DNA from: Armatimonadota bacterium
GTDB lineage: Bacteria; Armatimonadota; UBA5829
Assembly (NCBI GenBank): GCA_012522575.1
Contig: JAAYKE010000049.1
Coordinates: 2,445-66,444, forward strand
Direction of reading: 5' to 3'
Length of the DNA: 64,000 bases
Part shown: positions 13,255 through 50,229 of the stretch, one piece after another
Position numbering within the stretch: the stretch's first letter is position 1
How the letters are laid out: each line of letters starts with the position of its first letter
Made by a program: the position numbers and the translations under genes
The notes under the pieces: generated by a model
The model's database searches: none
The model's input: the letters and a program-made list of their open reading frames with translations, nothing else
What the model was told of the DNA's origin: nothing

Positions 13255-13405
13255 CGGCTACTTCTAATTTTACCACAGCCAAAAAACACCGGCAAATTTT
13301 CTAAAAACTGGTGGAACAAATATGTTTGCTGCGTCGTATATATATTAGCAAACCTTCCCACCCTCTTTTCTCCTCCCCGGTCTTCCAAAGATCGGGGAGC
13401 TTTTT

Positions 13406-35924: not shown

Positions 35925-38678
35925 ATGGACTATAGCAAAACCGTAAACCTGCCCAGGACGGACTTCCCGATGAAGGCAAACCTGCCGAACAGGGAGCCGG
36001 AATTCCATAAATACTGGGAAGAGCACGAGATTTATAACAAGATATCCCAACGCGACGACGCCAAAGGGACGTTTGTATTCCACGATGGCCCGCCCTATTC
36101 TAACGGCGATATTCACATGGGACATGCGCTCAATAAGTCCCTTAAGGATTTCATTGCGCGTTATAAGGCGATGACCGGCTATCGAGTGCCGTATATCCCC
36201 GGCTGGGATAATCACGGGCTGCCCATCGAACAGAAAGTGGCCGAGGAGTTCCGCAAGAAGAAGCAGAATCCGAGCAAGCTGGAACTGCGTAAAGCGTGCC
36301 GCATCTATGCCGAAAAATGGGTCGGAATCCAGCGTGAGCAGCTCAAAAGGCTGGGGCTTCTCAGCGATTGGGATCACCCATATCTCACCATGAGCCGCGA
36401 ATATGAGGCCACAATCATCAAAGTGTTTGGCGAGATGATGGAGAAGGGCTATATCTACCGCGGGCTTCGGCCAATTTACTGGTGCACCAACGACGAAACC
36501 GCGCTTGCCGAAGCGGAGATCGAATATGCCGACCATACCTCGCATTCGATATTCGTTCGCTTCCCGCTAGTGTGTGACCCAAATGGCATATTCGAGCGCA
36601 AAGAAAACGCTTATACGATAATCTGGACGACGACTCCTTGGACCATCCCGGCCAACCTGGCGGTTGCGGTTCACCCGGACTATGAATATGCCGTTGTGGA
36701 TGTCGCAGGGGATCGTTATCTTATAGCAGCCGAGCTTGTCAGTCGGACGATGGAAGCCGCCGAGGTGGCCGAATATTGCGTCGTCAAGACCGTCAAGGGC
36801 AGCGAACTTGAAGGGCTGGTGTTTAAGCACCCTATTTATGATCGTGAATCCGTGCTGACCCACGCCAACTATGTCACGCTGGAAGATGGAACCGGCATTG
36901 TTCATACCGCGCCGGGACATGGCCGCGAAGACTTTGAGACCGGCAAAAAGTATGGATTGGAAGCGCTGAACCCGGTTGATGAGCGGGGCTACTTCACCGA
37001 GGCCGCCGGACAGTTCGAAGGGCTTCACATTACCAGGCAGGGCAATCAGGCGGTTATCGACGCGATGCGAGAAAACGGCTCTCTGATGGCCGAAAGCAGC
37101 ATAACCCACAGCTACCCGCACTGCTGGAGGTGTCATAAGCCGGTAATATTCCGAGCGACTGAGCAGTGGTTCGTGAGCATCGACCACGACGATTTGCGAA
37201 AGCGCATTCTTAATGAGATCGAATCATCGGTGAGGTGTTTCCCGAAGGAGGGTCGCAATCGACTGTATGCGATGATCGAAAGTTCTCCGGACTGGTGCTT
37301 GTCCAGACAGCGGTCGTGGGGAGTGGCGATCCCGGTGTTGTTCTGTGACGCCTGCCGCGAACCGGTGTTGAGCAAGGATGTCATTGATCTTGTCTATGCG
37401 GATGCGCTGGAAAACGGGTCGGACTCGTGGTTCGAGAAAGATGCCTCGGAGTTTGTGCCGGCAGGGTTCAAATGCGCAGTCTGCGGATGCGAAACATTCG
37501 TCAAAGAAGAGGATGTCCTGGATGTGTGGTTCGATTCCGGGTCGAGCTGCAGAGCCGTGACTGAGCGCCTATATGGTGACTTTGTAGCGGATGTATATCT
37601 GGAAGGCTCAGACCAGCACAGGGGCTGGTTCAACAAGTCGATCATAGTCGGGACCGCAACGAAGGGCGCGTCTCCGTTCAAGGATCTGGTCACACACGGC
37701 TATGTGCTGGACGCCGAAGGCAAGAAGATGAGCAAGTCCGGCGGCAATACGATTGCTCCAAAGGAAGTAACCAAGCATTTCGGCGCGGATATTCTCAGAT
37801 TGTATATCTCATCGCTGAACTATTTTGAGGATGTGCGGTTTGGACAGGAGATGTTCACCCGTGCGGTGGACGCATACAGGCGCATCCGCAACACGTTCAG
37901 GTTCATTCTGGGCAATTTGTCTGACTTTGACCCGGATAACGACGCCGTTGATTATGCGGATATGCCTGAGATCGATAAATTCGCTCTGCATCGGCTTGCC
38001 GAGTTCACCGCCGAAGTGACAAAGGCTTATGAAGTCTATGAGTTTCATAAGGTCTACCATGCGGTGCACAATTACTGCGCGGTGGATTTGAGCGGGTTCT
38101 ATCTGGATGTGCTCAAGGACAGGCTCTATGCATCCGCGGCGGACTCCGATGAGCGTCGCTGTGCTCAGAGCGCTTTGTATCATATATTATCCGTTCTGAC
38201 GCGGGTTGTGGCTCCCGTGCTGGTGCATACATCCGAAGAGGCCTGGCTGGCTATGCCGGGTGAATCCAAAGCGGAGTCGGTGCATCTGGCTCCGTTCGCT
38301 GAGGCGGACTCACGGTGGATCGATTCCGAGCTTGCCGGGCGATGGGGACGCATACTCGAAGTGCGCGACCGTGTGCTGGCGGCTTTGGAAGAAGCAAGGC
38401 AGTCCGGGGCCATAGGCAAGCCGCTGGAGTCCAGGATTATAGTCTCCGCAGAGGATGAACTGCTCGCGTTTTTGAAGGGATATGAGGGCATTCTTCCATC
38501 GGTCTTTATAGTATCACAGGTAGAGCTAAGGCAAGCCGATGAGTTGGCTGTCGAAGTGCAGGCTCCTGCGGGCGCAAAGTGCGCGAGGTGCTGGCTGGTG
38601 CTCGAATCAGTCGGCACAAACGAGGAACACCCGGAACTGTGCAGCCGGTGCGCAGAAGCAATAGCACACTCTCACTGA
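35925..38678 (+). CDS. ileS: Isoleucine--tRNA ligase (bacterial type 1 with a C-terminal zinc finger)
   Basis: 'PPYSNGDIHMGHALNK' (HIGH), 'KMSKSGGN' (KMSKS), C-terminal 'CARCW....CSRC'. Confidence 0.95.
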   Translation: MDYSKTVNLPRTDFPMKANLPNREPEFHKYWEEHEIYNKISQRDDAKGTFVFHDGPPYSNGDIHMGHALNKSLKDFIARYKAMTGYRVPYIPGWDNHGLPIEQKVAEEFRKKKQNPSKLELRKACRIYAEKWVGIQREQLKRLGLLSDWDHPYLTMSREYEATIIKVFGEMMEKGYIYRGLRPIYWCTNDETALAEAEIEYADHTSHSIFVRFPLVCDPNGIFERKENAYTIIWTTTPWTIPANLAVAVHPDYEYAVVDVAGDRYLIAAELVSRTMEAAEVAEYCVVKTVKGSELEGLVFKHPIYDRESVLTHANYVTLEDGTGIVHTAPGHGREDFETGKKYGLEALNPVDERGYFTEAAGQFEGLHITRQGNQAVIDAMRENGSLMAESSITHSYPHCWRCHKPVIFRATEQWFVSIDHDDLRKRILNEIESSVRCFPKEGRNRLYAMIESSPDWCLSRQRSWGVAIPVLFCDACREPVLSKDVIDLVYADALENGSDSWFEKDASEFVPAGFKCAVCGCETFVKEEDVLDVWFDSGSSCRAVTERLYGDFVADVYLEGSDQHRGWFNKSIIVGTATKGASPFKDLVTHGYVLDAEGKKMSKSGGNTIAPKEVTKHFGADILRLYISSLNYFEDVRFGQEMFTRAVDAYRRIRNTFRFILGNLSDFDPDNDAVDYADMPEIDKFALHRLAEFTAEVTKAYEVYEFHKVYHAVHNYCAVDLSGFYLDVLKDRLYASAADSDERRCAQSALYHILSVLTRVVAPVLVHTSEEAWLAMPGESKAESVHLAPFAEADSRWIDSELAGRWGRILEVRDRVLAALEEARQSGAIGKPLESRIIVSAEDELLAFLKGYEGILPSVFIVSQVELRQADELAVEVQAPAGAKCARCWLVLESVGTNEEHPELCSRCAEAIAHSH

Positions 38679-38761
38679 GTGCAATCCGGACATATTCACG
38701 CGCTAAATATAACCGCAAGCCGGGATAAATTGGTCAATGAAATGATTGGAGCCTGAACAGC

Positions 38762-39277
38762 TTGGATCGAAAAAATACGATATTGTTCTATTCGACGGCA
38801 GCGGATGTGGCGGTTATAGATCAGTTGACCAAGTATCTGGCGCGGCAGAACCTCGCGTCCGGCAAGCCTGTGGAGGTGATCGCGGGTCTGCTTGACCTCC
38901 CCCTCAACTTCAACACGGGGGCTGCGTTCGGTCTGCTGCCGGATTGGGCGCCGCTGCTCATAATCATGGCCCTTGTGGCGATATTCATAATCGTAAAACT
39001 GCGCGGCGTTGGCGGCGGTTCTTTGCCTGTTTCGATTGGCCTTGGCCTGCTGCTGGGCGGTGCGATTGGCAACCTCATCGACCGCATCGCATTCCCCGCT
39101 CGCGGCGTGACCGATTTTATCGATATCCACATATTTGTTAAAGGTCAGACGCACGCCTGGCCTACTTTCAATATCGCGGATGTCGGGATAGTGGTCGGCG
39201 CGATTCTGGTTTTGTTTCACGTATATATCCTCGAAAGGATGAGAATGGATGATGGAGACACAGAGGCCGCAGATTGA
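38762..39277 (+). CDS. lspA: Lipoprotein signal peptidase (signal peptidase II)
   Basis: 'NFNTGAAFGLL', 'GNLIDR', 'FNIADVGIVVG' conserved blocks; conserved position downstream of ileS. Confidence 0.85.
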   Translation: MDRKNTILFYSTAADVAVIDQLTKYLARQNLASGKPVEVIAGLLDLPLNFNTGAAFGLLPDWAPLLIIMALVAIFIIVKLRGVGGGSLPVSIGLGLLLGGAIGNLIDRIAFPARGVTDFIDIHIFVKGQTHAWPTFNIADVGIVVGAILVLFHVYILERMRMDDGDTEAAD

Positions 39278-39752
39278 GATAGAGCCGACACCGATTGATC
39301 GAGTGGTGGATACGCTGGCGATGATAGGGCTGTTGTATATGGTGGCGATAACCGTGATCTATTATCCGCAGCTTCCGGCGACCATTCCCACGCATTTCGA
39401 TCTTGCAGGCAAAGTCGACGGCTGGGGATCAAAGTTGACCCTGTCGTTTTTGCCTGTGATAAGCGCGGTCTTTTATTTCGCTTTATCTACGATCACCCGT
39501 TTTCCGCACATATATAACTATCCCGTGCCGATAACCGCGGAGAACGTCGAGAAGCAGTATCGAATCGGAATATCGATTATGCGATGGCTGAAGATGGAGT
39601 TCGTGTGCATTTTCGCATTTCTGACTCAGCAGATAATCGCTGCGGCTCAGGTGAAACATCTTTCGATGCAGCCGTGGGTTCCGATGTTGTTTGTGGCGGC
39701 GATACTGATTACATCGGCTGTGCATATAGTGTTGGCTTATCGCGCGAAGTAG
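39249..39752 (+). CDS. DUF1648 domain membrane protein
   Basis: 'IPTHFDLAGKVDGWGSK' is the DUF1648 signature; four predicted TM helices. Confidence 0.5.
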   Translation: MMETQRPQIEIEPTPIDRVVDTLAMIGLLYMVAITVIYYPQLPATIPTHFDLAGKVDGWGSKLTLSFLPVISAVFYFALSTITRFPHIYNYPVPITAENVEKQYRIGISIMRWLKMEFVCIFAFLTQQIIAAAQVKHLSMQPWVPMLFVAAILITSAVHIVLAYRAK

Positions 39753-39761
39753 TATTGTTTC

Positions 39762-40523
39762 ATGCATAGTACCCTGTTTAAGATATTTGGATTTCCGGTG
39801 CACTCCTATGGCCTGATGATGGTCGTTGGGTTTGCGCTTGGGCTGTGGCGCGCGAGCAGAATATCGAAGAAGCGATATGGAATTGAGCCGGATCGGGTCT
39901 ATGATATGGCCCTGACGCTGCTGATCAGCGGCATAGTGGGATCGCGAATCGTATTTGTGCTCATTAACCCGGACACGGAGAGCTGGAAGGATATGCTGTC
40001 GGTGTGGCAGGGCGGACTAAGTTTCCACGGCGGGCTGATCAGCGCGATGGTTGCAGGAGCTATTTATGCGCGTATTGCGAAGCTGAATTATTGGGTTTGC
40101 GCTGATCTGTTCTCCCCTTCGCTGACGATTGGCTATGCCTGCACTCGAATCGGATGTTTTTTGAACGGCTGCTGCTATGGCGCGCCCACCAATCTGCCCT
40201 GGGGAATGAGATTCCTCGATGAAGGCTTCCTGACTCCGCCCTCTCACCCCACCCAACTCTATGCTGTCGGCGCAAATATTCTGATCCTGTGGGCGTTGAT
40301 TAGGTTGGAGAAGCTGCGCCGAAAGCCCGGTTTCGTATTTGTCGGATATGTCGGGCTTTACTCCATATACAGATTTCTGATCGAGTTTTTGCGCAGCGGA
40401 TATACCGCCAAACTGCTCGCGTTCGGGCTGACTGAGGCGCAGTGGGTAAGCCTGGCGGCCATATTAGCCTCGGCTGTTTTGATGCTCACGGTGTATCGCA
40501 ATCCCCTCAAATCTTCACAATAG
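39762..40523 (+). CDS. lgt: Prolipoprotein diacylglyceryl transferase
   Basis: 'GFPVHSYGLMMVVGFALG', 'GGLSFHGGLI', 'R.GCFLNGCCYG' Lgt signature blocks. Confidence 0.85.
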   Translation: MHSTLFKIFGFPVHSYGLMMVVGFALGLWRASRISKKRYGIEPDRVYDMALTLLISGIVGSRIVFVLINPDTESWKDMLSVWQGGLSFHGGLISAMVAGAIYARIAKLNYWVCADLFSPSLTIGYACTRIGCFLNGCCYGAPTNLPWGMRFLDEGFLTPPSHPTQLYAVGANILILWALIRLEKLRRKPGFVFVGYVGLYSIYRFLIEFLRSGYTAKLLAFGLTEAQWVSLAAILASAVLMLTVYRNPLKSSQ

Positions 40524-40605
40524 ACGATCTCATACTTCGAAGAACGAGATATTTCTGCAATTCGACGCCGATTTAATCCATACTCAGGTCATCAACTGAC
40601 AATTT

Positions 40606-40628
40606 TTGACATAGCCGTATGCTATAAT
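40606..40628 (+). promoter_or_regulatory. Putative sigma70-type promoter with an extended -10 (TGcTATAAT) upstream of the E2-like gene
   Basis: TTGACA at 40606-40611 and TGCTATAAT at 40620-40628; the spacer is short (11 nt), so the extended -10 would have to compensate. Confidence 0.3.
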
Positions 40629-40723
40629 ACCGGTGGGCGGTTGCGGATAAATCAACATCCATCTATAGCCATAATACTCATATAGTAAAAGAATATTGAG
40701 CGATAGATCGGCAAGGGTCGAAT

Positions 40724-41227
40724 ATGAATGTCAGACAACGCAGACTCAACTCGGATTTCCAGGCGCTCATCGAGCTTTCCCGCGACAATCCGCTTATTGA
40801 TTTTGATATATTAAGCAACAACAAGGACAGATATGTAGTGATTTATCGATGCAGAGGTCTGCATTGGCTGCCGGGTCGTCCGCGTCCATCCGTTGCTAAT
40901 CTGCATCGTATGGAAATTTATCTTCACCTGGACTACCCGCGCCTGCCTCCGCAACTGCAGTGGCTGACCGATATTTTCCATCCCAACATCCTGCCTCCTT
41001 CGATGAACGGCGGGGTATGCATAGGCAAATGGACCCCGGCGGAATCTCTGGACAGGCTGGTGGTGCGTCTCGGGGAGATGGTGCAGTATAAAAACTATAA
41101 CACAAAGGATCCCATGAACCTGCAAGCGGCCGCTTGGGCGGAAGAGAACTCCTCGTCGCTGCCCGTAGACAACAGGCCGCTGACAAATCATTCTAACCCT
41201 TTGGACATAGGCATAGGAGCGCAATAA
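40724..41227 (+). CDS. Ubiquitin-conjugating enzyme (E2/UBC)-like protein, copy 1
   Basis: 'DIFHPNILPPSMNGGVCIGKWTPAESL' matches the UBC active site (HPN, then the catalytic Cys, then the downstream Trp/Pro); the N-terminal 'RRLNSDFQAL' matches UBC helix 1. Confidence 0.7.
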   Translation: MNVRQRRLNSDFQALIELSRDNPLIDFDILSNNKDRYVVIYRCRGLHWLPGRPRPSVANLHRMEIYLHLDYPRLPPQLQWLTDIFHPNILPPSMNGGVCIGKWTPAESLDRLVVRLGEMVQYKNYNTKDPMNLQAAAWAEENSSSLPVDNRPLTNHSNPLDIGIGAQ

Positions 41228-41228
41228 A

Positions 41229-42167
41229 ATGTCATTTCGGTGTGGAAGGTATTTGCTGTTAGTTATTTGTTTGGGTGTTTTGTTTATCAGTTGCGTGTTC
41301 GCCGACGCCAGAGATGTGGTGGATAAAGTGGGCGATGCAGTGGTAAGCATAGAATGTGATACTCCCGCCGGCGTTTCGGGAGGTTCGGGCGTATTAGTAA
41401 ACCCGGACGGCTACATTCTGACCAACGCTCACGTCATTGATAAAGCAAAAAAAGTGCGGATTAAAATGACGGATGAGAAGCAGTTGAGCGCGAAGGTGGT
41501 GGCTAAAGACAACGAAAATGACCTTGCGATCATCCGCATCAATATCCGAAACCTGCCGGTGGCGGTTATCGGCAACGCGAAGAACGCCAAATCCGGGGAC
41601 AGCGTGGTTGCGATAGGCAGTCCCAAAGGGCTGGATCATACCGTCACCAGCGGGATTGTATCCAAAAGCGACAGAGTAATAAACGGACGCCATTATATTC
41701 AAACCGACGCAGCCCTCAACGAAGGCAACAGCGGTGGCCCGTTGCTGAACGAAAATGGGGAAATTATTGGCATCAATACAATGATTCATAAGAATGCCAA
41801 TCAACTTGGGTTTGCGATTCCCATAAATACGGCTTATGAACTGCTGAACAAAAATAATGTGGCTGTGCTCACGCCGCTGGATAATGAAGAACTTGCAAAG
41901 ACCAAATTGCCAGCCAACAAGACAGAGGGAGCAGGCAGACCATCGACCAAAAAGCCGGGCTGGATTTTATATGTGATTTTGGGAGTGGTTGCGGCGGCTG
42001 TTGCAGCAACCGTTGTGATACTGATTAGAAAGCGCAAAGCGCGAAAGCGGCAGGGAGGTAATGAGGGAGCGCTGGATATCACCCTGCATCCAAAGCTGGC
42101 ACAGGCTCAGCCGGCTGGCCAGGATAACGCCGACGACGGCGATGATTTGGAAATAGAACTGAAATAG
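41229..42167 (+). CDS. Membrane-anchored trypsin-like (S1/HtrA-type, no PDZ) serine protease with an acidic C-terminal tail
   Basis: 'ILTNAHVI' (His), 'NDLAIIRI' (Asp), 'GNSGGPLLN' (Ser) triad blocks; TM helix 'WILYVILGVVAAAVAATVVILI'; ends '...DDGDDLEIELK'; the start lies 1 nt after the E2 stop. Confidence 0.7.
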   Translation: MSFRCGRYLLLVICLGVLFISCVFADARDVVDKVGDAVVSIECDTPAGVSGGSGVLVNPDGYILTNAHVIDKAKKVRIKMTDEKQLSAKVVAKDNENDLAIIRINIRNLPVAVIGNAKNAKSGDSVVAIGSPKGLDHTVTSGIVSKSDRVINGRHYIQTDAALNEGNSGGPLLNENGEIIGINTMIHKNANQLGFAIPINTAYELLNKNNVAVLTPLDNEELAKTKLPANKTEGAGRPSTKKPGWILYVILGVVAAAVAATVVILIRKRKARKRQGGNEGALDITLHPKLAQAQPAGQDNADDGDDLEIELK

Positions 42168-42192
42168 AAACAGAGAGGAGATACACAAGATT

Positions 42193-42462
42193 ATGGGAAA
42201 AGTGGATGTCACGATTATTGACGCTACGGGAAACAAGGAGCAGCAGGCCTCGCTGCCGGACGATGCGCCGGTGAGGAGAATTATCGCCAGGCTGACGGAG
42301 ATGATGCAACTGCCGGCAACCGATCCGGGCGGACAGATGTTGAGCTACAAGTTTCAGCATAAGGCGTCCGGCACGCAGCTTACCGATGATCAGACCCTTG
42401 CCGATGCAAACGTAAAAGATGGGGACGTGCTGCGGATGCTGCCGGAGATTACTGCAGGATGA
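42193..42462 (+). CDS. Ubiquitin-like beta-grasp protein (Ubl) with a C-terminal Ala-Gly
   Basis: 89 aa; ends '...LRMLPEITAG*'; the stop overlaps the E1 start (ATGA); RBS 'GAGAGGAG' upstream. Confidence 0.6.
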   Translation: MGKVDVTIIDATGNKEQQASLPDDAPVRRIIARLTEMMQLPATDPGGQMLSYKFQHKASGTQLTDDQTLADANVKDGDVLRMLPEITAG

Positions 42463-43730
42463 TCGACGATACAGATGATCTCGGCATTGAACTGATCGGC
42501 GACGACGCCGTTGCGCCGGATGCCCAACAGCCGAAACAGGCGGACGAACAAAAGTTGGTGTCAACCGAGGAGGAAGAGGATCGCTACAGCCGTTTCCGAC
42601 TGATTCCGTGGTGGGATCAGGAGTTGCTTAAACGGACGCGCGTGCTGGTAGTTGGAGCGGGTGCGCTCGGCAATGAGATTCTCAAAAATCTTGCCCTGCT
42701 GGGAGTCGGCAAGATATTTCTGATCGATTTGGATCGGATAGAGAACTCCAACTTGTCCAGGTCGGTGCTTTACAGGCTGTCGGATGAGGGATCCGGCAAA
42801 GCGGAAGTAGCTGCGCGGTCGGCGATGGAGATCAACCCTGACATTACCGTGCATCCGTTTATGGGCAATATCGTGCACGATGTGGGCCTGGGTGTGTTCA
42901 GATCAATGGATGTGGTGATCTGCGGACTGGATAATCGAGAGGCGAGGCTGTGGGTCAACCAGTGCTGCTGGCGGGTGAACAGGCCGTGGATCGACGGAGC
43001 TATAGAGGTATTGCACGGCATAGTGCGAGTGTTCGTCCCGCCTGATGGCGCGTGTTATGAATGCACAATGAACGACACCGACTATGAGATGCTGCGGCGG
43101 CGAAAGTCCTGCGCTCTGCTGACCAGAGAACAGATGCTGGAAGGCAAAGTGCCGACCACGCCAACCATATCATCGGTAATCGCGGGAATACAGTGTCAGG
43201 AGGCCGTAAAACTGGTTCACGATCGCCCTGAGCTACCGGTGCTTGAGGGAAAGGGATACTTCTTCAACGGATTGACCCATGACTCATTTGTGGTGAATTA
43301 TACCCGCAAGCAGGATTGTTTGAGCCATGAGACCTTTGAAAACATCAAGGAGATGGACTGGCGGGCGCAGGACCTGACCTTGAGGCAGGCTCTCGAACAT
43401 ATTCGAGCGGATCTCGGAGACGAAGCGGCTCTGGAGCTTAACCGCGAAATTGTATATGAGATGACCTGTGAGCAATGCGATGTCTCGGTTCCGACTTCGA
43501 TGCTGCTGGGGAAGATGACCGAAGCCGATGCCGCTTGCCCGAAATGCCGCGAAGTGATGGCTTTGGAGATGTGTCACAGCGTCTCCGGAGACGAGGCGTT
43601 TGTTGACAAGACCTTCGCCGAAATAGGGCTGCCCGCATTTGACATAGTTGCGGGCAGGTGCGGGATGGAAGAAAGGTACTATGAGTTGAGCGGTGACAGG
43701 GCAAAGATGCTCGGCGACATCGCGGATTGA
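42459..43730 (+). CDS. E1-like ubiquitin-activating enzyme (ThiF/MoeB/HesA family) with a C-terminal CxxC zinc module
   Basis: 'RVLVVGAGALGNEILKNLALLGVGKIFLIDLDRIENSNLSRS' adenylation Rossmann fold; C-terminal 'CYEC', 'CEQC', 'CPKC' pairs; N-terminal acidic 'DDTDDLGIELIGDD'. Confidence 0.8.
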   Translation: MIDDTDDLGIELIGDDAVAPDAQQPKQADEQKLVSTEEEEDRYSRFRLIPWWDQELLKRTRVLVVGAGALGNEILKNLALLGVGKIFLIDLDRIENSNLSRSVLYRLSDEGSGKAEVAARSAMEINPDITVHPFMGNIVHDVGLGVFRSMDVVICGLDNREARLWVNQCCWRVNRPWIDGAIEVLHGIVRVFVPPDGACYECTMNDTDYEMLRRRKSCALLTREQMLEGKVPTTPTISSVIAGIQCQEAVKLVHDRPELPVLEGKGYFFNGLTHDSFVVNYTRKQDCLSHETFENIKEMDWRAQDLTLRQALEHIRADLGDEAALELNREIVYEMTCEQCDVSVPTSMLLGKMTEADAACPKCREVMALEMCHSVSGDEAFVDKTFAEIGLPAFDIVAGRCGMEERYYELSGDRAKMLGDIAD

Positions 43731-44707
43731 GCAAAAAAAGAACGGGTGGGAAGGCTATGACTGCAGAGGATAGACACAATGATGCAGATATTGAGCTTAT
43801 TGTAACCGAAAATCGGCCCAGCGGCGCGATGGATTGTCCGGACATCCGGATCGACCCTGAAGTAGATAAGCAGATACAGACCTTCGCAAAAACAGACACC
43901 GGCAAAGAGTTGGGAGGAGTGCTGCTTGGGGAGCTTATCGCTGATTCCGTAATCCCGCAGGTGAGAATCAAGGCCGCTATTGAGGCCAAACATACGGAAG
44001 CCGTTCAGACAAGCGTCAAATTCACCCACGATACCTGGGACGACATCAACCGGGTCAAGGATGAAAAATATCCGGATATGCGGATAGTCGGGTGGTTCCA
44101 CACTCATCCCGGCTTTGGCATATTCCTGTCGCGGTGGGATATGTTTATCCAGGAAAACTTCTTTAATCTGCCGTGGCAGGTGGCCTATGTGGTCGATCCT
44201 GTCGGTAAAACGAGCGGGTTTTTCCGGTGGGAAAACGGCAAAGTTGCTCAGGTCGGCAAGAAAAAAGAAATTGCGCCTCCTATTGAGGTCACGCTTCCGA
44301 AAGTGGAAAAAGTCGGCAGGTCATTTAACTGGGGAACGGTATTCTCTGTTGTCTTGAACGTTGCGCTGATTGCGGCCGTGGTATATCTTGGCCTGTTCAA
44401 GCCTCCGGAGGTTCGGGTTGAGGAGAAAATCGTAACCGAAGAAGCGCCGGTTAACGTTGAGCGGCAATCGACAACTGAGATGACCGAGCAAGCGCAGACG
44501 TGGACGGAATATGTTGTGCAGAGGGGGGATTCTTTCTGGTCGATAGCCAAGAATTGTTATGGAGAGGGTGAATTATATACCGCTATCCAACTCTTCAACA
44601 ATATGCCCGATAAAAAGGTACTGCACACAGGGGAGCGCTTGCGGCTGCCGTCCAAAGAGATCGCCGTTACGATGCTTGACAAGAGGATCAGACCAGGGAT
44701 TGATTAA
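43727..44707 (+). CDS. JAB/MPN (JAMM) metalloprotease fused to a TM segment and a C-terminal LysM domain
   Basis: 'E..AV' glutamate plus 'WFHTHPGFGIFLSRWD' (HxHx7Sx2D); TM helix 'VFSVVLNVALIAAVVYLGLF'; LysM 'YVVQRGDSFWSIAKNCYG....AIQLFNNMPDKKVLHTGERLRLP'. Confidence 0.75.
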   Translation: MSKKRTGGKAMTAEDRHNDADIELIVTENRPSGAMDCPDIRIDPEVDKQIQTFAKTDTGKELGGVLLGELIADSVIPQVRIKAAIEAKHTEAVQTSVKFTHDTWDDINRVKDEKYPDMRIVGWFHTHPGFGIFLSRWDMFIQENFFNLPWQVAYVVDPVGKTSGFFRWENGKVAQVGKKKEIAPPIEVTLPKVEKVGRSFNWGTVFSVVLNVALIAAVVYLGLFKPPEVRVEEKIVTEEAPVNVERQSTTEMTEQAQTWTEYVVQRGDSFWSIAKNCYGEGELYTAIQLFNNMPDKKVLHTGERLRLPSKEIAVTMLDKRIRPGID

Positions 44708-45301
44708 ATGCGTTCGTCTGTCGGCAAAACGTGTCCATATTGCCAGTATCCCATCAAGCCGGATGAGCCGGTAATCGAGTGCAGTCATTGCGGCATGCCG
44801 CATCATAGGGCTTGCTGGGAATATAACCGCGGGTGTACGACTTATGGCTGCAGCGGAGTGCAGCGGCATGGCAGATTGCCCGTTGCAGGCAATCAGCAGG
44901 GGTCTGATCATATCGACCTTACAGACATAATGCACGAGCCGGAACAGCCGACTCCATACTATCCGCAACAACCGGGATACCAGCCCGCGGAATCGGAAGC
45001 TCCGCTTTTAGCGACATCGAACTCATTAGCGGGCAGCGGAGGAGTGATTGGAGCGATAATCGGAGGATTTATCGGTCTGAGCGGCGGGTGCGCAGGCTGC
45101 ATTCCCGGCGCAATTTTCGGTTTTATCATAGGCGCCTTGATCGGCGGGTTTATGCTCTATGGCATTATAATAACTGTGACCAGCGGGATTGGGTATATGT
45201 TCGGATCAGTCGGCGGGCAGGACGCGGCTATCGGCGGAGCGGCAATCGGGCTGATAGTCGGAGTCATAATAATCGTAATCGGTTGCTGCAAGCAGGCATG
45301 A
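44708..45301 (+). CDS. PHD/RING-like binuclear zinc-finger protein (paralog 1) with a glycine-zipper membrane C-terminus; candidate E3
   Basis: N-terminal 'CPYCQYPIKPDEPVIECSHCGMPHHRACWEYNRGCTTYGC' (C-x2-C-x12-C-x2-C-x3-HH-x2-C-x6-C-x4-C); the C-terminal half is GxxxG-rich and hydrophobic. Confidence 0.55.
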   Translation: MRSSVGKTCPYCQYPIKPDEPVIECSHCGMPHHRACWEYNRGCTTYGCSGVQRHGRLPVAGNQQGSDHIDLTDIMHEPEQPTPYYPQQPGYQPAESEAPLLATSNSLAGSGGVIGAIIGGFIGLSGGCAGCIPGAIFGFIIGALIGGFMLYGIIITVTSGIGYMFGSVGGQDAAIGGAAIGLIVGVIIIVIGCCKQA

Positions 45302-45339
45302 CGATTCATACAAGATCAAGATAGCAGGAGGTTTGATCT

Positions 45340-45939
45340 ATGGCTAATACAGTGGCCGGACCCGCAATAGCCGGCAAGACATGTCCGTTTTGTCAGACTC
45401 CGATAAAACCAAATGAACCTGTGCACATTTGTGACCAGTGCAATATCCCGCATCACCAGGATTGCTGGCGGGAAAATGGCGGCTGCACGACTTTCGGGTG
45501 CAGGGGAGCCAATGCAGCACGCCCAATCATCCCGCAACGAGCTTACGACGATCACTCTCAACCAGTCCAACAGCAGCCCTATTTTCAACCAAATCAGCAA
45601 CCCGGATACGGTAATCAATATCAACAACATTATCAATATGCGCCCGATGTGCCGCCTGAAATAATGGGCAAGCTCAACTGGGGAGCATTTCTTTTGCCTT
45701 TCTTTTGGGCGATAGCCCACAATGTGTGGATCGGACTCTTAATACTGGTTCCCTACGTTGGATGGGTTATGCATTTTGTTCTGCTGTTCAAGGGCAACGA
45801 ATGGGCGTGGAGAAATCGCAGATTCCAGAGCGTTCAACATTTCAACGAAGTGCAAAATGCCTGGGTGATAGCGGGACTCATATTGTTCTTCGGGTCGATA
45901 GTGTTCGTTTTTATATTAATGTCACTGGCGTACGCTTAG
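45340..45939 (+). CDS. PHD/RING-like zinc-finger membrane protein (paralog 2); candidate E3
   Basis: 'CPFCQTPIKPNEPVHICDQCNIPHHQDCWRENGGCTTFGC' has the same ligand spacing; a Gln/Pro/Tyr-rich linker; two or three C-terminal TM helices. Confidence 0.55.
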   Translation: MANTVAGPAIAGKTCPFCQTPIKPNEPVHICDQCNIPHHQDCWRENGGCTTFGCRGANAARPIIPQRAYDDHSQPVQQQPYFQPNQQPGYGNQYQQHYQYAPDVPPEIMGKLNWGAFLLPFFWAIAHNVWIGLLILVPYVGWVMHFVLLFKGNEWAWRNRRFQSVQHFNEVQNAWVIAGLILFFGSIVFVFILMSLAYA

Positions 45940-45962
45940 TTTAGTCAAGTTAGCTGAAATCC

Positions 45963-46847
45963 ATGACCGGCAAGCTCTGTCCATATTGTCAAAATCGTAT
46001 TACGTCGGGGAGCGCGGTTACTGCCTGCCCTGCCTGCAACACTCCGCATCATAGCGAGTGCTGGAACTACAATGGCGGGTGCACGACTTTTGGGTGCCGA
46101 TATATGCCCGGAGCAAGTGCGCATTCTTCAGCACAAGCATACGATGCATACGATGACCTGGATATAGAGCTTTATCCTCCGGGTGGCGGGTATCCGCCTT
46201 CGCGAAGCGGTCATGTGGAGCAGCAACACTACCGGCAGAGCCAGCCCAGGTCAAAGAATTCGTGGTTGTGGGCGATTATTTCGATAACTGCGTTTCTGGG
46301 CATGGTCGCCATTATGATAAGCACGACATTCAATAACCCGACGAATGCATCTTACATGAAACGCGCCATAAAATGCGTCAATCAAGAGCAGTATGAAACT
46401 GCAAAAACCTACTGTAATCTGGCTATTGAACAGGACCCCGAGTGTATGGAGGCATATTATCTGAAGGGCACATTGCTGCTGGAGCTTTGCAATTGGCGGC
46501 ACAACAACATTGAGGTGTGGATGAACCAGGCCAGACACGGTAACACTGAGCGGTTCGATGCGGCAGATGAGTGCTTTAGGCAATGTATCAGGTTCGCGCC
46601 AACTGATACGACTGAATATAACAAATATCTGAAGCTGGATAACTCTGAGATTGTGAGCCGGGCGTATGTCCACCTGGCGATGACGGCAACTCTGCGGATG
46701 CTGGCTAATTATGATGCCAATCGTATGAACGACGCGCTACTATGGGCCAGAATCGCGCGGCAATATCTTAACAAGGTGACATATTACCACCTTGGAACGG
46801 AGTATTACGAACTGGCAGATGCCCTGCAAAAGTTTGTGCCCGGTTAA
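45963..46847 (+). CDS. PHD/RING-like zinc-finger membrane protein (paralog 3) with a C-terminal TPR-like helical domain; candidate E3
   Basis: 'CPYCQNRITSGSAVTACPACNTPHHSECWNYNGGCTTFGC'; one TM helix 'WLWAIISITAFLGMVAIMI'; TPR-like 'YETAKTYCNLAIEQDPECMEAYYLKGTLLLE'. Confidence 0.55.
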   Translation: MTGKLCPYCQNRITSGSAVTACPACNTPHHSECWNYNGGCTTFGCRYMPGASAHSSAQAYDAYDDLDIELYPPGGGYPPSRSGHVEQQHYRQSQPRSKNSWLWAIISITAFLGMVAIMISTTFNNPTNASYMKRAIKCVNQEQYETAKTYCNLAIEQDPECMEAYYLKGTLLLELCNWRHNNIEVWMNQARHGNTERFDAADECFRQCIRFAPTDTTEYNKYLKLDNSEIVSRAYVHLAMTATLRMLANYDANRMNDALLWARIARQYLNKVTYYHLGTEYYELADALQKFVPG

Positions 46848-46897
46848 GATACGCAGCGGCTTAATATACTTGATCAACACAACTGGAGACGATATAT

Positions 46898-47467
46898 ATG
46901 AACCCTAGAATGATGCGTCTGAATGCCGATTACGAGAAGATCAGGACGGAATTTCTCGGCCATAGATATGTTACGGTCGAACCGATGGGTTCGCTGCCGC
47001 CTGAGAGATATAGAATCACATATCGAGTGCCGGGGCTGCGATGGGATAGCTTCGGCAACAGGCCGATTGTCGTCAACGAACATGTCGCGGAGATATATCT
47101 TCACGCTGATTACCCGCGTCAAACGCCAAAAGCTACCCTCAAAACCCCGATTTGGCACCCGAACTTTGGCACATATATCTGCATTGGAGATCACTGGGCG
47201 GCAGGAGAGACGCTGGTGGATATAATCGTGCAGATTGGGGATATGATTCAATATAAGTCCTACAATCCCAAGAGTCCGCTCAATGCAAATGCCGCGATAT
47301 GGTCGATGCAAAACCAGCATCTCTTCCCGGTAGGGACGATCGATATCCTGCAGCCGGAACCGGAGGTGGAGTTTGGCGGCGCAAGCGCAGATGTTGAGGA
47401 GGATGACCTTGGAATTGTGCTGGGGCCAAGCTCCGATAACGATGATCTGGAGATAGAATTCAAATGA
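46898..47467 (+). CDS. E2/UBC-like protein, copy 2, with an acidic C-terminal tail
   Basis: 'PIWHPNFGTYICIGDHWAAGETL' HPN...C motif; N-terminal 'MRLNADYEKI'; ends '...DNDDLEIEFK'; RBS 'GGAGACG' upstream. Confidence 0.7.
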   Translation: MNPRMMRLNADYEKIRTEFLGHRYVTVEPMGSLPPERYRITYRVPGLRWDSFGNRPIVVNEHVAEIYLHADYPRQTPKATLKTPIWHPNFGTYICIGDHWAAGETLVDIIVQIGDMIQYKSYNPKSPLNANAAIWSMQNQHLFPVGTIDILQPEPEVEFGGASADVEEDDLGIVLGPSSDNDDLEIEFK

Positions 47468-48231
47468 CACGGCCAGATGACGCCGGCAATCAAAAAATTG
47501 AAGTGACACTGGACGAGCCGGTCGATACGCCTGAGCAGGGATCAAATAGACCGCAAGGGGAATCGGAAGGCGCGATTCCACCGGGAGCCGTTGAGGTCTA
47601 TATAGACAAGGCTGTGCTTGAATCGACCTGGGAGCATGTGCTCACAAACAGGCGCACCGAGCTTGGCGGAGTGCTGATTGGGCGGCGCAGGGAAGCGGAC
47701 GGAACCTTTACGCACATCACAAACTGGCTTGACGCGAGGCACACGACCACCACCTCCGGCAGCCTGACATTCACACACGATGCCTGGGCCGATATAGCGC
47801 AACGAATGAGCGATATGGATCCGGATGACAAAATTGTCGGATGGTATCATTCTCATCCCGGCCACGGCGTTTTTATGAGCGGCCAGGATAGATTTATCCA
47901 TAATAACTTCTTTGCCAATGACTGGCAGTGTGCGCTGGTGATTGACCCAATTAAAAACGACAGGGGATTGTTTCAATTAGTCAACGGACAGATTGTGCGC
48001 ACCGGGTATTGGTGTGTGCCCGACAAGCCGGTGTATGTGACTCAACAAGATAGTAAGCCCGTTGCCGTGGAAACGCCGCCGCAACAGGATGGGTTGCACG
48101 AAGCGGCAAGCGATTTTCTGGAAGCGGGAGATCATATCGCATCGGGAATAGAGAAATTCGTAAAATATTCTGCACAGCGCATACGCAATTCTAAAGGCCC
48201 GCTTGGCCGGAACATCGACAAAAAGGCGTAA
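47464..48231 (+). CDS. JAB/MPN (JAMM) metalloprotease, copy 2 (soluble)
   Basis: 'ELGGVLIG' glutamate plus 'WYHSHPGHGVFMSGQD' (HxHx7Sx2D); the start overlaps the E2 copy-2 stop (ATGA). Confidence 0.75.
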   Translation: MTRPDDAGNQKIEVTLDEPVDTPEQGSNRPQGESEGAIPPGAVEVYIDKAVLESTWEHVLTNRRTELGGVLIGRRREADGTFTHITNWLDARHTTTTSGSLTFTHDAWADIAQRMSDMDPDDKIVGWYHSHPGHGVFMSGQDRFIHNNFFANDWQCALVIDPIKNDRGLFQLVNGQIVRTGYWCVPDKPVYVTQQDSKPVAVETPPQQDGLHEAASDFLEAGDHIASGIEKFVKYSAQRIRNSKGPLGRNIDKKA

Positions 48232-48258
48232 GACATCGCGCTATAAGGAGCGACTGAG

Positions 48259-49344
48259 ATGAGCAACGACAAAATTGAAATCAGCTTTGACGATGAGGAC
48301 GAGCAGCCGAAGCCCCGGGAAAAGAAACTGATCATTACGAGCGATGACCTGCTCAACGTGCCCGACCCGCAGCCGCTTGCCGCACAGAAGCCTGTGGGGT
48401 TTGATGCGCCTGCGGATTCATATATGCAGTATCAGAAGAAACCATCGGCCTCAGCGGTGTCCGGTCACAGTATTATGCAGGGAGCAATCGCCGGGCTTAT
48501 TGGCGGTTTTTTGGCGTGGGCTGTCACTGAGCCTTTATTTGGGGACAATGTGGCCAGCAGCAATTTTGTCAGTATCATCGTTAAAATGGGTTTTTTCGGC
48601 GGACTGATCGGAGGGCTGATTGGCGGTTGCCTGGGAGCTGCGGATGGAGTTGTTTCAGGAGTTGCTGAAAAGGCGTTCAAGGCCGGCGCAATTGGCTTGG
48701 GGATCGGAATGGGCGGCGGTTTTCTGGGCGGAGTTTTTGGGCAGATTGTCTATGGCGCTCTGCTGCAATCGGGAGAACCCGGACTTGGCACATATATGGT
48801 GGCGCGAACAATCGGCTGGTCGGTGGTGGGTGTGTTCGTTGGGTTGGGACAGGGAGTAGGACGAGGCTCCGGCAAGCGCGTGACTAACGGTTTGCTGGGA
48901 GGTCTGGCTGGCGGTTTTATTGCAGGAATTCTGTTTGACCCAATTTCGGTTTTATTTGCTACCGGATTGTTGAGCCGACTCTTTGGAATCACGATACTCG
49001 GCGCTGCTGCCGGGCTGGCGGTCGGATTGGTGGAGGAAATGCGAAAGCAAGCCTGGTTATCTATAGTCAAAGGGCCGCTTGCGGGCAAGCAGTTTATTTT
49101 ATATGAACAAAGAACGAGAATTGGCAGTTCTCCCAAGTGTGAAATTAGTCTGGTAAAAGACCCGCAGGTGATGCCGGAACACATTGCCATAGATAATCAC
49201 GGCAGCAGTTTCAGCCTCAGCGCTCTTATGGGACAGGCGCTGGTGGACGGACGACCGGTACATCAAACCCGGCTGCAGGCGGGGAATATGATCACACTCG
49301 GTTCGACGTCGCTGCTCTTTGAGGAGAAGGCGATCGGTCAGTAG
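48259..49344 (+). CDS. Membrane protein with a glycine-zipper TM region and a C-terminal FHA-like domain
   Basis: N-terminal acidic 'KIEISFDDEDEQ'; GxxxG-rich hydrophobic core 'GAIAGLIGGFLAWAV...GGLIGGLIGGCLGAADG...GIGMGGGFLGGVFG'; C-terminal 'GKQFILYEQRTRIGSSPKCEISLVKDPQVMPEHIAID.....L.....ALVDGRPV....L..GNMITLGSTSLLFE' matches an FHA fold pattern. Confidence 0.55.
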   Translation: MSNDKIEISFDDEDEQPKPREKKLIITSDDLLNVPDPQPLAAQKPVGFDAPADSYMQYQKKPSASAVSGHSIMQGAIAGLIGGFLAWAVTEPLFGDNVASSNFVSIIVKMGFFGGLIGGLIGGCLGAADGVVSGVAEKAFKAGAIGLGIGMGGGFLGGVFGQIVYGALLQSGEPGLGTYMVARTIGWSVVGVFVGLGQGVGRGSGKRVTNGLLGGLAGGFIAGILFDPISVLFATGLLSRLFGITILGAAAGLAVGLVEEMRKQAWLSIVKGPLAGKQFILYEQRTRIGSSPKCEISLVKDPQVMPEHIAIDNHGSSFSLSALMGQALVDGRPVHQTRLQAGNMITLGSTSLLFEEKAIGQ

Positions 49345-49380
49345 ATATCTGACTAAGGAGCGATAAGGCCATTAACGCAG

Positions 49381-49500
49381 TCATCGGGAAAATCTGCCCT
49401 TTTTGCCAGACTCCTATAAAATCGGAGGACGATTGGGATTCGGATGACGACGACGATGGTTGGGATTCCGAGGAATATGATGATGACTGGGATTACTGAT
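49381..49500 (+). pseudogene. Fragment of a fourth zinc-finger paralog fused to an acidic Trp-rich tail (no ATG start)
   Basis: The in-frame translation '...GKICPFCQTPIKSEDDWDSDDDDDGWDSEEYDDDWDY*' carries only the first CxxC of the paralog motif; the upstream in-frame stop leaves no canonical start. Confidence 0.4.
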
Positions 49501-49526
49501 TTGGTTATAGGGTTGGGAGGGCTAAT

Positions 49527-50102
49527 ATGATCGCGCCTAGGCGCATTTTGGGCCTTATCTGCGGGGTGTGCGCGGTGATATTGGTCGTGGGATGCAGCGG
49601 TGGTAATTCATCCGCGCCTGCCGAGGGAAATCGGCCCCAGTCGCTGTTTAGCGCAGATTTGGCCGAACGACTGGACAGACACGATGCGCAAACCGGGGAT
49701 GTGCAGGCGAGTTTGATCTGGAATAACTACAACGACCTCGACTTGCACATTATTGATCCGAATGATGAACGGATATATTTCGCGCACAAACGGGCCAGGT
49801 CAGGAGGGGAACTCGATGTGGATATGAACGCGCGCGGTCGGGAATCTAATGAGCCGGTCGAAAACATCTATTTCCCGCAAGGCGGAGCGCCCGCCGGACG
49901 CTACAGGGTCTACGTTCATTACTATGCCAAGCACGACTCCGATAACCTCACCCCGTTCAGATGCGAAGTGCTGGTCAAAGATGAGGTGCATAAATTCTCC
50001 GGGGAGATGTCCAAAGGCGATCCGATCCGACTGATTTATGAATTCACACTGGAAGGCAAGCAGGAAAAACCAATTCCACTGCTGTTTTCACCGAGAAGAT
50101 AG
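49527..50102 (+). CDS. Lipoprotein of unknown function
   Basis: 'MIAPRRILGLICGVCAVILVVGCSGG' lipobox; conserved-looking 'LIWNNYNDLDLHIIDPNDERIYF....GGELDVDMN' beta-rich domain; RBS 'GGGAGGG' upstream. Confidence 0.5.
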   Translation: MIAPRRILGLICGVCAVILVVGCSGGNSSAPAEGNRPQSLFSADLAERLDRHDAQTGDVQASLIWNNYNDLDLHIIDPNDERIYFAHKRARSGGELDVDMNARGRESNEPVENIYFPQGGAPAGRYRVYVHYYAKHDSDNLTPFRCEVLVKDEVHKFSGEMSKGDPIRLIYEFTLEGKQEKPIPLLFSPRR

Positions 50103-50229
50103 ATGAACGCTCAAAACGGACCGGCGATACTTGCAAGCAAATAACCCGTCGGAGTTTTCAAGTAAGCAAATTAGCCAGGATGGATTCGAAAGGCACATCT
50201 GCCAGCTAGGGAAATAGTAGGCCGACTTG

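Follow-up and report, generated by a model that had tools for sequence, protein, structure and literature searches.

A PDZ-less HtrA-type serine protease with a conserved tail motif, predicted to belong to a membrane-centred ubiquitin-like conjugation system in bacteria

What is a trypsin-like serine protease doing in an operon for the conjugation of a ubiquitin-like protein (Ubl)? The question is raised by a 64,000-nucleotide stretch of DNA from an Armatimonadota bacterium (assembly GCA_012522575.1, contig JAAYKE010000049.1, positions 2,445 to 66,444; hereafter the window), in which an S1/HtrA-type protease gene lies between an E2 gene and a Ubl gene. Comparison of this locus with its relatives indicates that the protease is inherited together with, and dedicated to, a Ubl-conjugation system centred on the membrane. 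Its membership in the cassette, its topology and a motif in its cytoplasmic tail are broadly conserved, and this part of the picture is solid; the mechanism is what we infer from it. The protease gene has the following features.

41229 to 42167, + strand: S1/HtrA-type serine protease gene, 312 amino acids plus stop (Pfam Trypsin_2)
41229 to 41303, + strand: predicted N-terminal signal peptide, residues 1–25 (MSFRCGRYLLLVICLGVLFISCVFA, followed by DA), from Kyte-Doolittle hydropathy, the n-region and the site VFA/DA
41307 to 41858, + strand: HtrA-type chymotrypsin-fold protease domain, residues ~27–210, from PDB profile matches, AlphaFold2 (AF2) and Foldseek
41430 to 41432, + strand: catalytic His68 (TNAHV), invariant and aligned to the HtrA His motif
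41520 to 41522, + strand: catalytic Asp98 (DLAII), invariant
41730 to 41732, + strand: catalytic Ser168 (GNSGGP), invariant
41961 to 42026, + strand: predicted single transmembrane (TM) helix, residues 245–266, Kyte-Doolittle peak 2.78
42027 to 42050, + strand: basic stop-transfer segment RKRKARKR, residues 267–274, charge +6 directly after the TM helix
42072 to 42086, + strand: first strand-like motif of the tail, LDITL, residues 282–286, from orthologue conservation
42141 to 42164, + strand: terminal motif DDLEIELK-COOH, residues 305–312, putative docking motif, from orthologue conservation and a sequence logo

Pfam assigns the protein to Trypsin_2 (E = 3e-34) and Trypsin (E = 3.6e-21), and no PDZ family is detected in it at E ≤ 0.01. 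The region C-terminal to the protease domain consists of a linker of about 35 amino acids, the TM helix and the tail. Searched with an orthologue profile, the PDB yields chains of MucD, DegP, HhoA, HTRA1/2, DegQ and AlgW at E values from 1e-57 to 1e-45, and the TNxHV, D-A-(I/V) and GNSGGP motifs are in register in the alignment to the solved HtrA chains. In the AF2 model, the predicted local distance difference test score (pLDDT) is ~85–94 across residues ~30–210 and falls below 50 in the signal region, the linker (residues 225–243) and the tail (residues 272–312). Foldseek places this model with the catalytic domains of HtrA1, DegS, DegP, DegQ and MucD, at target TM-scores of up to 0.88, root-mean-square deviations of 1.6–2.3 Å and 40–44% identity.

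The residues of the triad, His68, Asp98 and Ser168, are invariant in 18 orthologues and in all 58 cassette-linked homologues from other genomes (58/58), and in the latter set the same is true of G166, G169 and P171. An earlier, sequence-only reading of this stretch had described a PDZ-less HtrA/S1 protease with an intact triad, and had allowed that the triad might be misassigned in an inactive pseudo-protease. The description is borne out by the sequence and fold alignments, and the triad residues hold, with 58/58 conserved. The protease is apparently catalytically competent.

All the same, the protein departs from the canonical HtrA type. None of the NCBIfam HtrA/Deg models (Do/DegP/DegQ/DegS/HhoA) reaches its curated cut-off; the best match, TIGR02037, scores 204.8 bits against a cut-off of 416.2, and the DegS model scores 139 against 422.95. 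The orthologues form 17 full-length clusters at 40–94% identity, after which the scores fall abruptly to generic Do/DegQ proteases, whose matches span ~50% of the query and which carry the PDZ families absent from the orthologue group. Public records for the protease, from metagenome-assembled genomes (MAGs) of Armatimonadota, name it plainly as an S1C or trypsin-like serine protease. With HtrA, DegP, DegQ, DegS and MucD (MEROPS S1C) it shares the chymotrypsin fold, the TNxHV, D-x-A and GNSGGP motifs and a predicted extracytoplasmic location. These proteases are soluble or anchored at the N-terminus; the present one lacks a PDZ domain, follows its signal peptide with a C-terminal TM helix in a type-I arrangement, ends in a system-specific cytoplasmic tail motif and is encoded inside a Ubl-conjugation operon. 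Architecturally it is thus a new form of HtrA-type protease, and one devoted to a bacterial Ubl/RING system.

The ATG of the protease gene (41229) lies 1 nt past the stop codon TAA of the first E2 gene (41225–41227) and is preceded, 8 nt upstream, by AGGAG, while a 25-nt spacer separates the TAG stop (42165–42167) from the ATG of the Ubl gene at 42193. All of the 11 genes of the cassette (40724–49344) are on the + strand, where they are separated by short spacers or overlap by 4 nt. The tight flanking by E2 and Ubl genes described earlier is thus confirmed, and the same-strand packing of E2, protease and Ubl genes is consistent with co-expression. A scan of 40300–50300 for promoter and terminator consensus sequences gave counts at the level of shuffled sequence.

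The wider comparison was anchored on the E1, the best single-copy gene for this use. At least 548 stretches encoding an E1 relative came out of a pattern scan of species-representative genomes, and the best 80 of them were examined; open reading frames (ORFs) were called in 84 loci and searched with the cassette proteins of the window. The loci come from Armatimonadota, many Clostridia, Syntrophomonas, Planctomycetes, Aminicenantes, WS1 and Synergistales. Where enough flanking sequence is available, an S1 protease is present in the cassette of 59/70 loci and the terminal motif in 55/70; in the 11/70 loci without S1, tblastn finds no protease remnant.

The cassettes come in two gene orders. In the Armatimonadota type (22 loci), the order is E2-S1-Ubl-E1-JAB and onwards, with S1 upstream of Ubl-E1, and in the Clostridia type (33 loci) it is Ubl-E1-E2(FHA fusion)-S1-JAB-RING-JAB. 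Furthermore, three orthologues in unrelated chromosomal contexts all lie in E2-S1-YukD-E1-JAB/LysM cassettes that also contain RING, second E2, JAB and FHA genes. The linkage thus outlives both rearrangement and phylum-level divergence, which shows a functional tie between the protease and the cassette. Judged by these loci, the S1 protease belongs to the cassette as a standard part and is not an insertion. A second, non-JAB protease in a Ubl cassette had been called unusual; in this family it is the rule. Nor is the gene missing from most homologous cassettes, which the earlier reading had named as a sign of an unrelated insertion; it is present in 59/70.

The first E2 shows a closer association still. 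Enzymes of this type (E2a) were found only directly upstream of the protease, in 14/14 of the loci that have one (the window, L001, L003 to L006, L008, L045, L061, L062, L069, L071, L074 and L078). This pattern suggests that E2a and the protease form a sub-module. The two genes are often 1 nt apart or overlapping, and E2a is found in no protease-less cassette.

On which side of the membrane does the protease act? Residues 1–25 reach a Kyte-Doolittle peak of 2.64; two basic residues give the n-region a charge of +2, the h-region is 16 residues long and the site is VFA/DA. Most orthologues have small residues at -3 and -1 (A or S at -1) ahead of a conserved D-A/V-R. The only other hydrophobic segment of the protein is residues 245–266, over which AF2 predicts a helix (residues 245–272). 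Among 55 homologues, the first 10 residues after the TM helix contain a median of three K+R, and the layout of signal, S1 domain, TM helix, basic segment and tail recurs in nearly all cassette-linked homologues. Since the signal-peptide features and the positive charge after the TM helix agree, the protease domain is predicted to be exoplasmic and the last ~46 residues cytoplasmic, as in a type-I membrane protein. Taken together, the fold, the triad and the membrane features go far beyond a chance resemblance.

The N-terminus had been read earlier as a signal anchor. Given that most orthologues keep the small -3/-1 pattern and share no conserved Cys, it is more probably a type-I signal peptide that can be cleaved than a signal anchor or a lipoprotein signal; the sidedness is identical on either reading. 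A lipoprotein was considered for the FISC box that the window protein carries, near lgt and lspA, yet this Cys is not conserved among orthologues and the candidate was rejected. The other topological proposals hold up: a single TM helix (245–266) is followed by an acidic tail ending in DDGDDLEIELK, and from topology rules and TM positions the protease is predicted to be exoplasmic, on the same side as the LysM domain of the first JAB protein. This LysM domain and the TPR region of the third RING protein (RING3) each follow a single TM helix after a cytoplasmic catalytic domain, which would place both on the exoplasmic face. For this Armatimonadota-like organism that side corresponds to the periplasm, and for the Clostridia homologues to the wall zone.

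The acidic tail holds a feature that the sequence-only reading had missed. It is a conserved terminal motif, which the comparisons below find in common with E1, E2, JAB and one RING protein of the cassette. In the 18 orthologues, L286 of the first motif is invariant and I284 nearly so, and in the terminal motif I309 and L311 are invariant and D306 is conserved in at least 90%. The logo of 55 cassette proteases reads [DE]-x-x-D-[FILV]-[DE]-I-[DE]-[IL]-x(-x)-COOH, with D at position 0 in 53/55 and I at position +3 in 55/55, and the motif always ends 1–2 residues from the C-terminus. In these 55 homologues, the S1 tails have a median length of 27 amino acids. Within the window, four proteins contain the heptad DDL.IE[LF], namely the protease and the following three.

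42474 to 42494, + strand: motif in the N-terminus of E1 (M-I-D-D-T-DDLGIEL), from the heptad search of the window
46152 to 46172, + strand: motif DDLDIEL in the linker of RING3 between RING and TM, from the heptad search of the window
47441 to 47464, + strand: motif DDLEIEFK-COOH at the C-terminus of the second E2, from the heptad search of the window

Weaker copies are found at the N-termini of both JAB proteins and of the FHA protein (NDKIEISF in the latter) and at the C-terminus of the first E2. Across the related loci, the motif is distributed as follows.

S1 protease: 53/61 (strict regular expression), extreme C-terminus
E2 of the second type (E2b): 58/68, C-terminal in short forms, right after the E2 domain in long E2-FHA fusions
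JAB: 35/116 (strict regular expression), first 40 residues
E1: 7/84 (strict regular expression), N-terminus
RING: 6/103 (strict regular expression), mostly internal
Ubl: 0/83 (strict regular expression), none
Background ORFs of at least 200 amino acids in the same loci: 0/759, extreme C-terminus

RING3 and the long E2-FHA fusions (50/68 E2b) carry the motif internally. An alignment of 30 E1 sequences has the N-terminal consensus MxxDLxIxL, and the consensus of 66 homologues of the second E2 ends in DDLxIxL......DDLxIELx. Furthermore, the +1 residue covaries within a cassette; the Clostridia have F there (TDFDIDILE, MDDFEIEL), the Armatimonadota L or I. With a loose regular expression, the window by itself gives a modest enrichment (4 observed against 0.36 expected, a level reached by 3/2000 shuffles). 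The strong evidence for the motif is its positional conservation across loci and not its enrichment in the window. The motif keeps its positions across about 80 related loci.

We also considered the tail as an obligate Lys acceptor for Ubl; this was ruled out, as 11/55 tails contain no Lys.

The distribution points to the motif as a common docking peptide for the enzymes of the cassette. The minimal cassettes of L065, L073 and L084 (Ubl-E1-E2-JAB/LysM-RING) have neither FHA protein nor protease and still carry the motif on E1, E2 and JAB, which leaves the Ubl and RING as partner candidates. Of these, we favour the Ubl or Ubl chains, because the motif is borne by the Ubl-handling E1, E2s, JABs and one E3 and never by the Ubl, and because acidic residues enclose its hydrophobic strand core and tandem copies are frequent. 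These features recall the SUMO-interacting motifs (SIMs), which have a hydrophobic strand core and acidic flanks, are often tandem and occur in the E1, E2-associated proteins, E3 and protease of the SUMO pathway. The motif described here is likewise found on E1, E2, JAB, one RING and the S1 tail and never on the Ubl, and its logo displays the short hydrophobic strand core and acidic flanks. It differs from SIMs in its alternating L-x-I-x-L pattern, where SIMs have a contiguous V/I run, and in its strong preference for the chain terminus.

The remaining genes of the cassette supply the possible partners and substrates of the protease.

40724 to 41227, + strand: first E2 (UQ_con, HPN...Cys), Pfam E = 1.1e-10
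42193 to 42462, + strand: YukD-like Ubl, ending in ...EITAG without a pro-peptide, Pfam YukD PF08817 E = 2e-14
42459 to 43730, + strand: E1 (ThiF family), Pfam ThiF E = 2.1e-54
43727 to 44707, + strand: JAB-TM-LysM protein, LysM predicted exoplasmic, Pfam JAB E = 5.6e-11 and LysM E = 1e-6, TM helix at residues 199–227
44708 to 45301, 45340 to 45939 and 45963 to 46847, + strand: three membrane-anchored Prok-RING_1 proteins (RING1 to RING3), Pfam PF14446 above cut-off, with TM segments
46898 to 47467, + strand: second E2, ending in DDLGIVLG...DDLEIEFK-COOH, Pfam UQ_con E = 7e-9
47464 to 48231, + strand: second JAB (soluble), with the motif-like NQKIEVTL at its N-terminus, Pfam JAB E = 8.6e-12
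48259 to 49344, + strand: multi-TM glycine-zipper-like protein with a C-terminal FHA domain (YscD-type), Pfam Yop-YscD_cpl E = 3.6e-12 and FHA E = 4.6e-6

The HPN...C motif of the E2s and the JAMM motif (HxHx7SxxD) of both JABs are visible in the translations, and the TPR region of RING3 (45963–46847) lies beyond its TM helix. The window thus has a full set of a Gly-ended YukD-like Ubl, a ThiF E1, HPN-Cys E2s, JAMM JABs and TM-anchored RINGs. Six of the 11 proteins are integral to the membrane, namely the protease, the JAB-TM-LysM protein, the three RING-TM proteins and the multi-TM FHA protein. Burroughs, Iyer and Aravind reportedly predicted E1/E2/JAB/RING systems with YukD-like Ubls in 2011, in work said to be the source of the Pfam family Prok-RING_1, and the cassette of the window has every defining part of such systems. 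Later open summaries from this group name JAB alone as a peptidase seen consistently in prokaryotic Ub-like systems (PMC3417536). In the literature, we found no account in which an S1 protease is a standing member of the cassette and bears a shared tail motif, although the 2011 prediction paper may mention one, and no experimental work on this cassette was found. PADLOC 2.0 returns no system-level match for the cassette and none for the E2s, Ubl, RING and FHA; its matches are to domains only, namely the trypsin domain of RT-Protease/LmuA, the E1-E2 of the anti-phage system that signals through cyclic oligonucleotides (CBASS) and JAB. The parts list also echoes the type VII secretion system (T7SS), with a YukD-like beta-grasp protein (42193–42462), a YscD-type FHA protein (48259–49344) and an exoplasmic, membrane-anchored serine protease (41229–42167).

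Our preferred reading, which we regard as evenly poised between right and wrong, is that the protease is the exoplasmic, PDZ-less HtrA-type arm of the system, which its tail docks to the Ubl machinery at the membrane and which cuts parts that lie outside. The signal peptide would send the protease domain to the exoplasmic face, where the single TM helix would anchor it. Through its tail motif the protease would be tied to the cytoplasmic machinery, or else to membrane proteins marked with Ubl, and in concert with conjugation on the inside it would cut membrane or envelope proteins in their exoplasmic parts. Candidate substrates are the exoplasmic TPR (RING) and LysM (JAB) portions of the system itself. 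Control might run in either direction, as inside-out activation or as outside-in site-1 cleavage of RING3-TPR or JAB-LysM. Cleavage of the signal peptide, the partner of the motif, the substrates and the direction of signalling are all points that we infer.

Several points weigh against this reading. The predicted topology comes from rules of hydrophobicity and charge. The protease is missing from 11/70 cassettes and is therefore not essential to the conjugation core, and the 84% presence comes from the closest 80 relatives of the E1 and may not hold for more distant cassettes. The presence of the protease across loci does not strictly track that of FHA or LysM. Finally, in an AF2 model of the second E2 built with 66 homologues, the core is confident and the tail (residues 160–189) has a pLDDT below 50 with no docking in cis; the tail is thus not docked on its own E2 core, which excludes that option weakly.

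A bolder version of the preferred reading, which we consider unlikely, would make the system a machine that works across the membrane. The SIM-like peptide on E1, E2, JAB, a RING E3 and the protease tail would gather all the parts on the Ubl or Ubl chains at the membrane, and conjugation in the cytoplasm would direct or activate the exoplasmic protease, with tail-driven clustering into an active trimer as one example of how this might happen. The protease would then cleave Ubl-marked membrane proteins in their outer portion. Proteolysis of membrane proteins under the direction of ubiquitin would thereby have a counterpart in bacteria, in which the 'reader' sits on one side of the membrane and the 'blade' on the other.

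To our knowledge, the bacterial Ubl systems studied so far (CBASS Cap2/Cap3, Bil and Bub) are cytoplasmic, with peptidases that act on the Ubl itself. The cassette described here joins a full E1-E2-RING-JAB set to membrane anchoring and an outward-facing protease, in a family with E1 relatives in at least 548 species representatives, many gut Clostridia among them. If the tail motif couples the protease to conjugation, this would be a first example of Ubl signalling across a bacterial membrane, and the motif, as a peptide, would offer a simple experimental handle on the assembly of the whole system. Read conservatively, the analysis corrects the annotation from a generic 'S1C/trypsin-like protease' to a system-specific subunit.

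Among the other explanations, one differs from the preferred reading only in direction and overlaps with it otherwise. The protease might be an outside-in sensor, in which a DegS-like site-1 cut of RING3-TPR or JAB-LysM upon an envelope cue (envelope damage, phage attack or a peptidoglycan change) switches conjugation on or off, with the tail as a tether. HtrA proteases are classic envelope-stress sensors, as in the DegS/RseA pathway, and both the HtrA-family fold and the exoplasmic site beside the LysM and TPR modules of the same operon are compatible with such a role. However, Pfam finds no PDZ or other recognisable sensor domain, and the cassette has no anti-sigma-like substrate or site-2 protease. 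Compared with a DegS-type site-1 protease, the anchor is C-terminal, the PDZ domain is missing and no RseA- or RseP-like gene accompanies it. In addition, a strictly conserved cytoplasmic motif common to E1, E2 and JAB suggests information or binding on the inside, although it is also compatible with a tether. We regard the sensor as a rather improbable account.

The layout of the protease raises a different option, in which it is mainly a structural subunit and proteolysis is secondary, as for the mycosin MycP in type VII secretion; its TM helix, tail and exoplasmic domain would together stabilise a membrane complex. MycP has a signal peptide, an exoplasmic serine protease domain, a C-terminal TM helix and a short cytoplasmic tail, and thus the same topology. 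In the T7SS, a YukD-like beta-grasp domain binds the FHA domains of YukB (PMC12637312), and T7SS gene clusters include a subtilisin-like mycosin (PMC1779556). Both systems join a YukD-like Ubl, FHA domains and a membrane serine protease, and the tail motif of the present protein implies docking. The resemblance to MycP is one of layout only, since MycP has a subtilisin (S8) fold and the protease here is S1; the T7SS moreover has no E1, E2, JAB or RING, and its YukD is not conjugated. The conservation of the triad and of the oxyanion-hole glycines in 58/58 homologues, across deep divergence, suggests that catalysis is selected, which is not decisive, as MycP keeps its triad too. The absence of the protease from 11/70 cassettes would be odd for a keystone, and a mainly structural role is quite unlikely in our view.

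The shared terminal motif could instead be read as a common degron, through which a cytoplasmic or membrane AAA+ protease such as FtsH or Clp would turn over the enzymes of the system and the protease tail in a coordinated way, leaving the S1 protease as an independent exoplasmic effector. The motif sits at N- or C-termini, as degrons do; FtsH initiation needs a certain tail length, and the S1 tails, with their median of 27 amino acids, would be long enough. This explanation is highly unlikely, given that RING3 and the long E2-FHA fusions have the motif at internal positions, that it is strongly acidic, unlike known bacterial C-degrons, and that its tandem copies in S1 and in the second E2 fit multivalent binding better.

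The earlier reading had also proposed that the protease acts in the cytoplasm, by maturing a pro-Ubl or pro-effector or by degrading Ubl-conjugated targets, as a second deubiquitinase or in a proteasome-like manner. Its gene does lie between E2 and Ubl genes, some Clostridia-type Ubls have long extensions that need processing (L013, 256 amino acids), and the Bub operons use a serine protease, BubE, on their Ubl. BubE, a DUF6527/PF20137 beta-sandwich with a Ser-His dyad, is cytoplasmic and acts on the Ubl C-terminus and on conjugates (PMC11601596). Among serine proteases of bacterial ubiquitination-like operons, it is the only other one described, and like the present protein it is a non-JAB enzyme. 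Its fold is unrelated, however, as the protease here has an S1 triad (Pfam finds trypsin-type families only) and is predicted to lie outside the membrane. The signal peptide, the C-terminal TM helix and the positive-inside charge put the catalytic domain on the exoplasmic side, which makes degradation of conjugated targets in the cytoplasm topologically implausible. Pro-Ubl processing is implausible too, with only the ~46 tail residues inside and a Ubl that ends in EITAG and a stop without extension; the Ubls of close relatives also end in ...TAG. Pro-Ubl maturation and deconjugation are thus unlikely functions because the protease is on the wrong side of the membrane, the Ubl has no extension and the cassette supplies two JAB peptidases, their JAMM motifs intact, for processing the Ubl, and we give a cytoplasmic role hardly any credence.

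That a housekeeping quality-control HtrA of the periplasm lies in the operon by chance is just as barely credible, for although the domain strongly resembles DegP, DegQ and MucD and its public annotation is simply S1C or trypsin-like protease, the protein lacks PDZ, scores far under the NCBIfam HtrA/Deg cut-offs, belongs to a separate orthologue group with a sharp score fall to generic Do proteases, keeps its linkage across phyla in two gene orders and shares its tail motif with cassette proteins.

The other cassette proteins display further features of their own. RING1 (44708–45301, residues ~106–197) and the FHA protein (residues ~71–261) have long glycine-zipper-like hydrophobic regions that contain GxxxG runs, for example GGVIGAIIGGFIGLSGG and GFFGGLIGGLIGG, and resemble membrane-perturbing 2TM/glycine-zipper modules. 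These regions could be the membrane effectors of the system.

In the Clostridia-type loci (L013 to L060 and others, for example L015 11173–12828), the E2 is fused to a C-terminal FHA domain in a protein of ~550–640 amino acids, joined via a copy of the motif and a hydrophobic region. Some Clostridia-type Ubls have a long C-terminal extension with a TM segment, as at L013 2730–3500; such extended Ubls would need processing after ...PEITAG. L004 contains an additional Peptidase_M48 gene (12489–13334) between the E1 and JAB-LysM genes, which would be a second membrane or exoplasmic protease of the system. L025, labelled as Escherichia coli isolate H07611-L1_cleanbin_000006, has a Clostridia-type cassette with a gene order identical to that of L013, from a Clostridiales MAG, and nearly identical scores; it is probably a mis-binned contig and not an E. 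coli locus.

Directly upstream of the cassette in the window (35925–40523) are ileS, lspA (Peptidase_A8), a DUF1648 gene and lgt. The same ileS-lspA-DUF1648-lgt arrangement is found upstream in the 61%-identical relatives L001 and L005, and the more distant cassettes of L003 and L004 lie in unrelated chromosomal contexts. In the lineage of the window, the cassette looks like a stable chromosomal locus and not a mobile island. On its other side, after the FHA gene, 49527–50102 encodes a 191-amino-acid protein with an N-terminal signal-like segment and a sub-threshold match to DUF2135. The equivalent position in L001 holds a 197-amino-acid ORF without a Pfam match. The protein at 49527–50102 may be a further, secreted component of the cassette.

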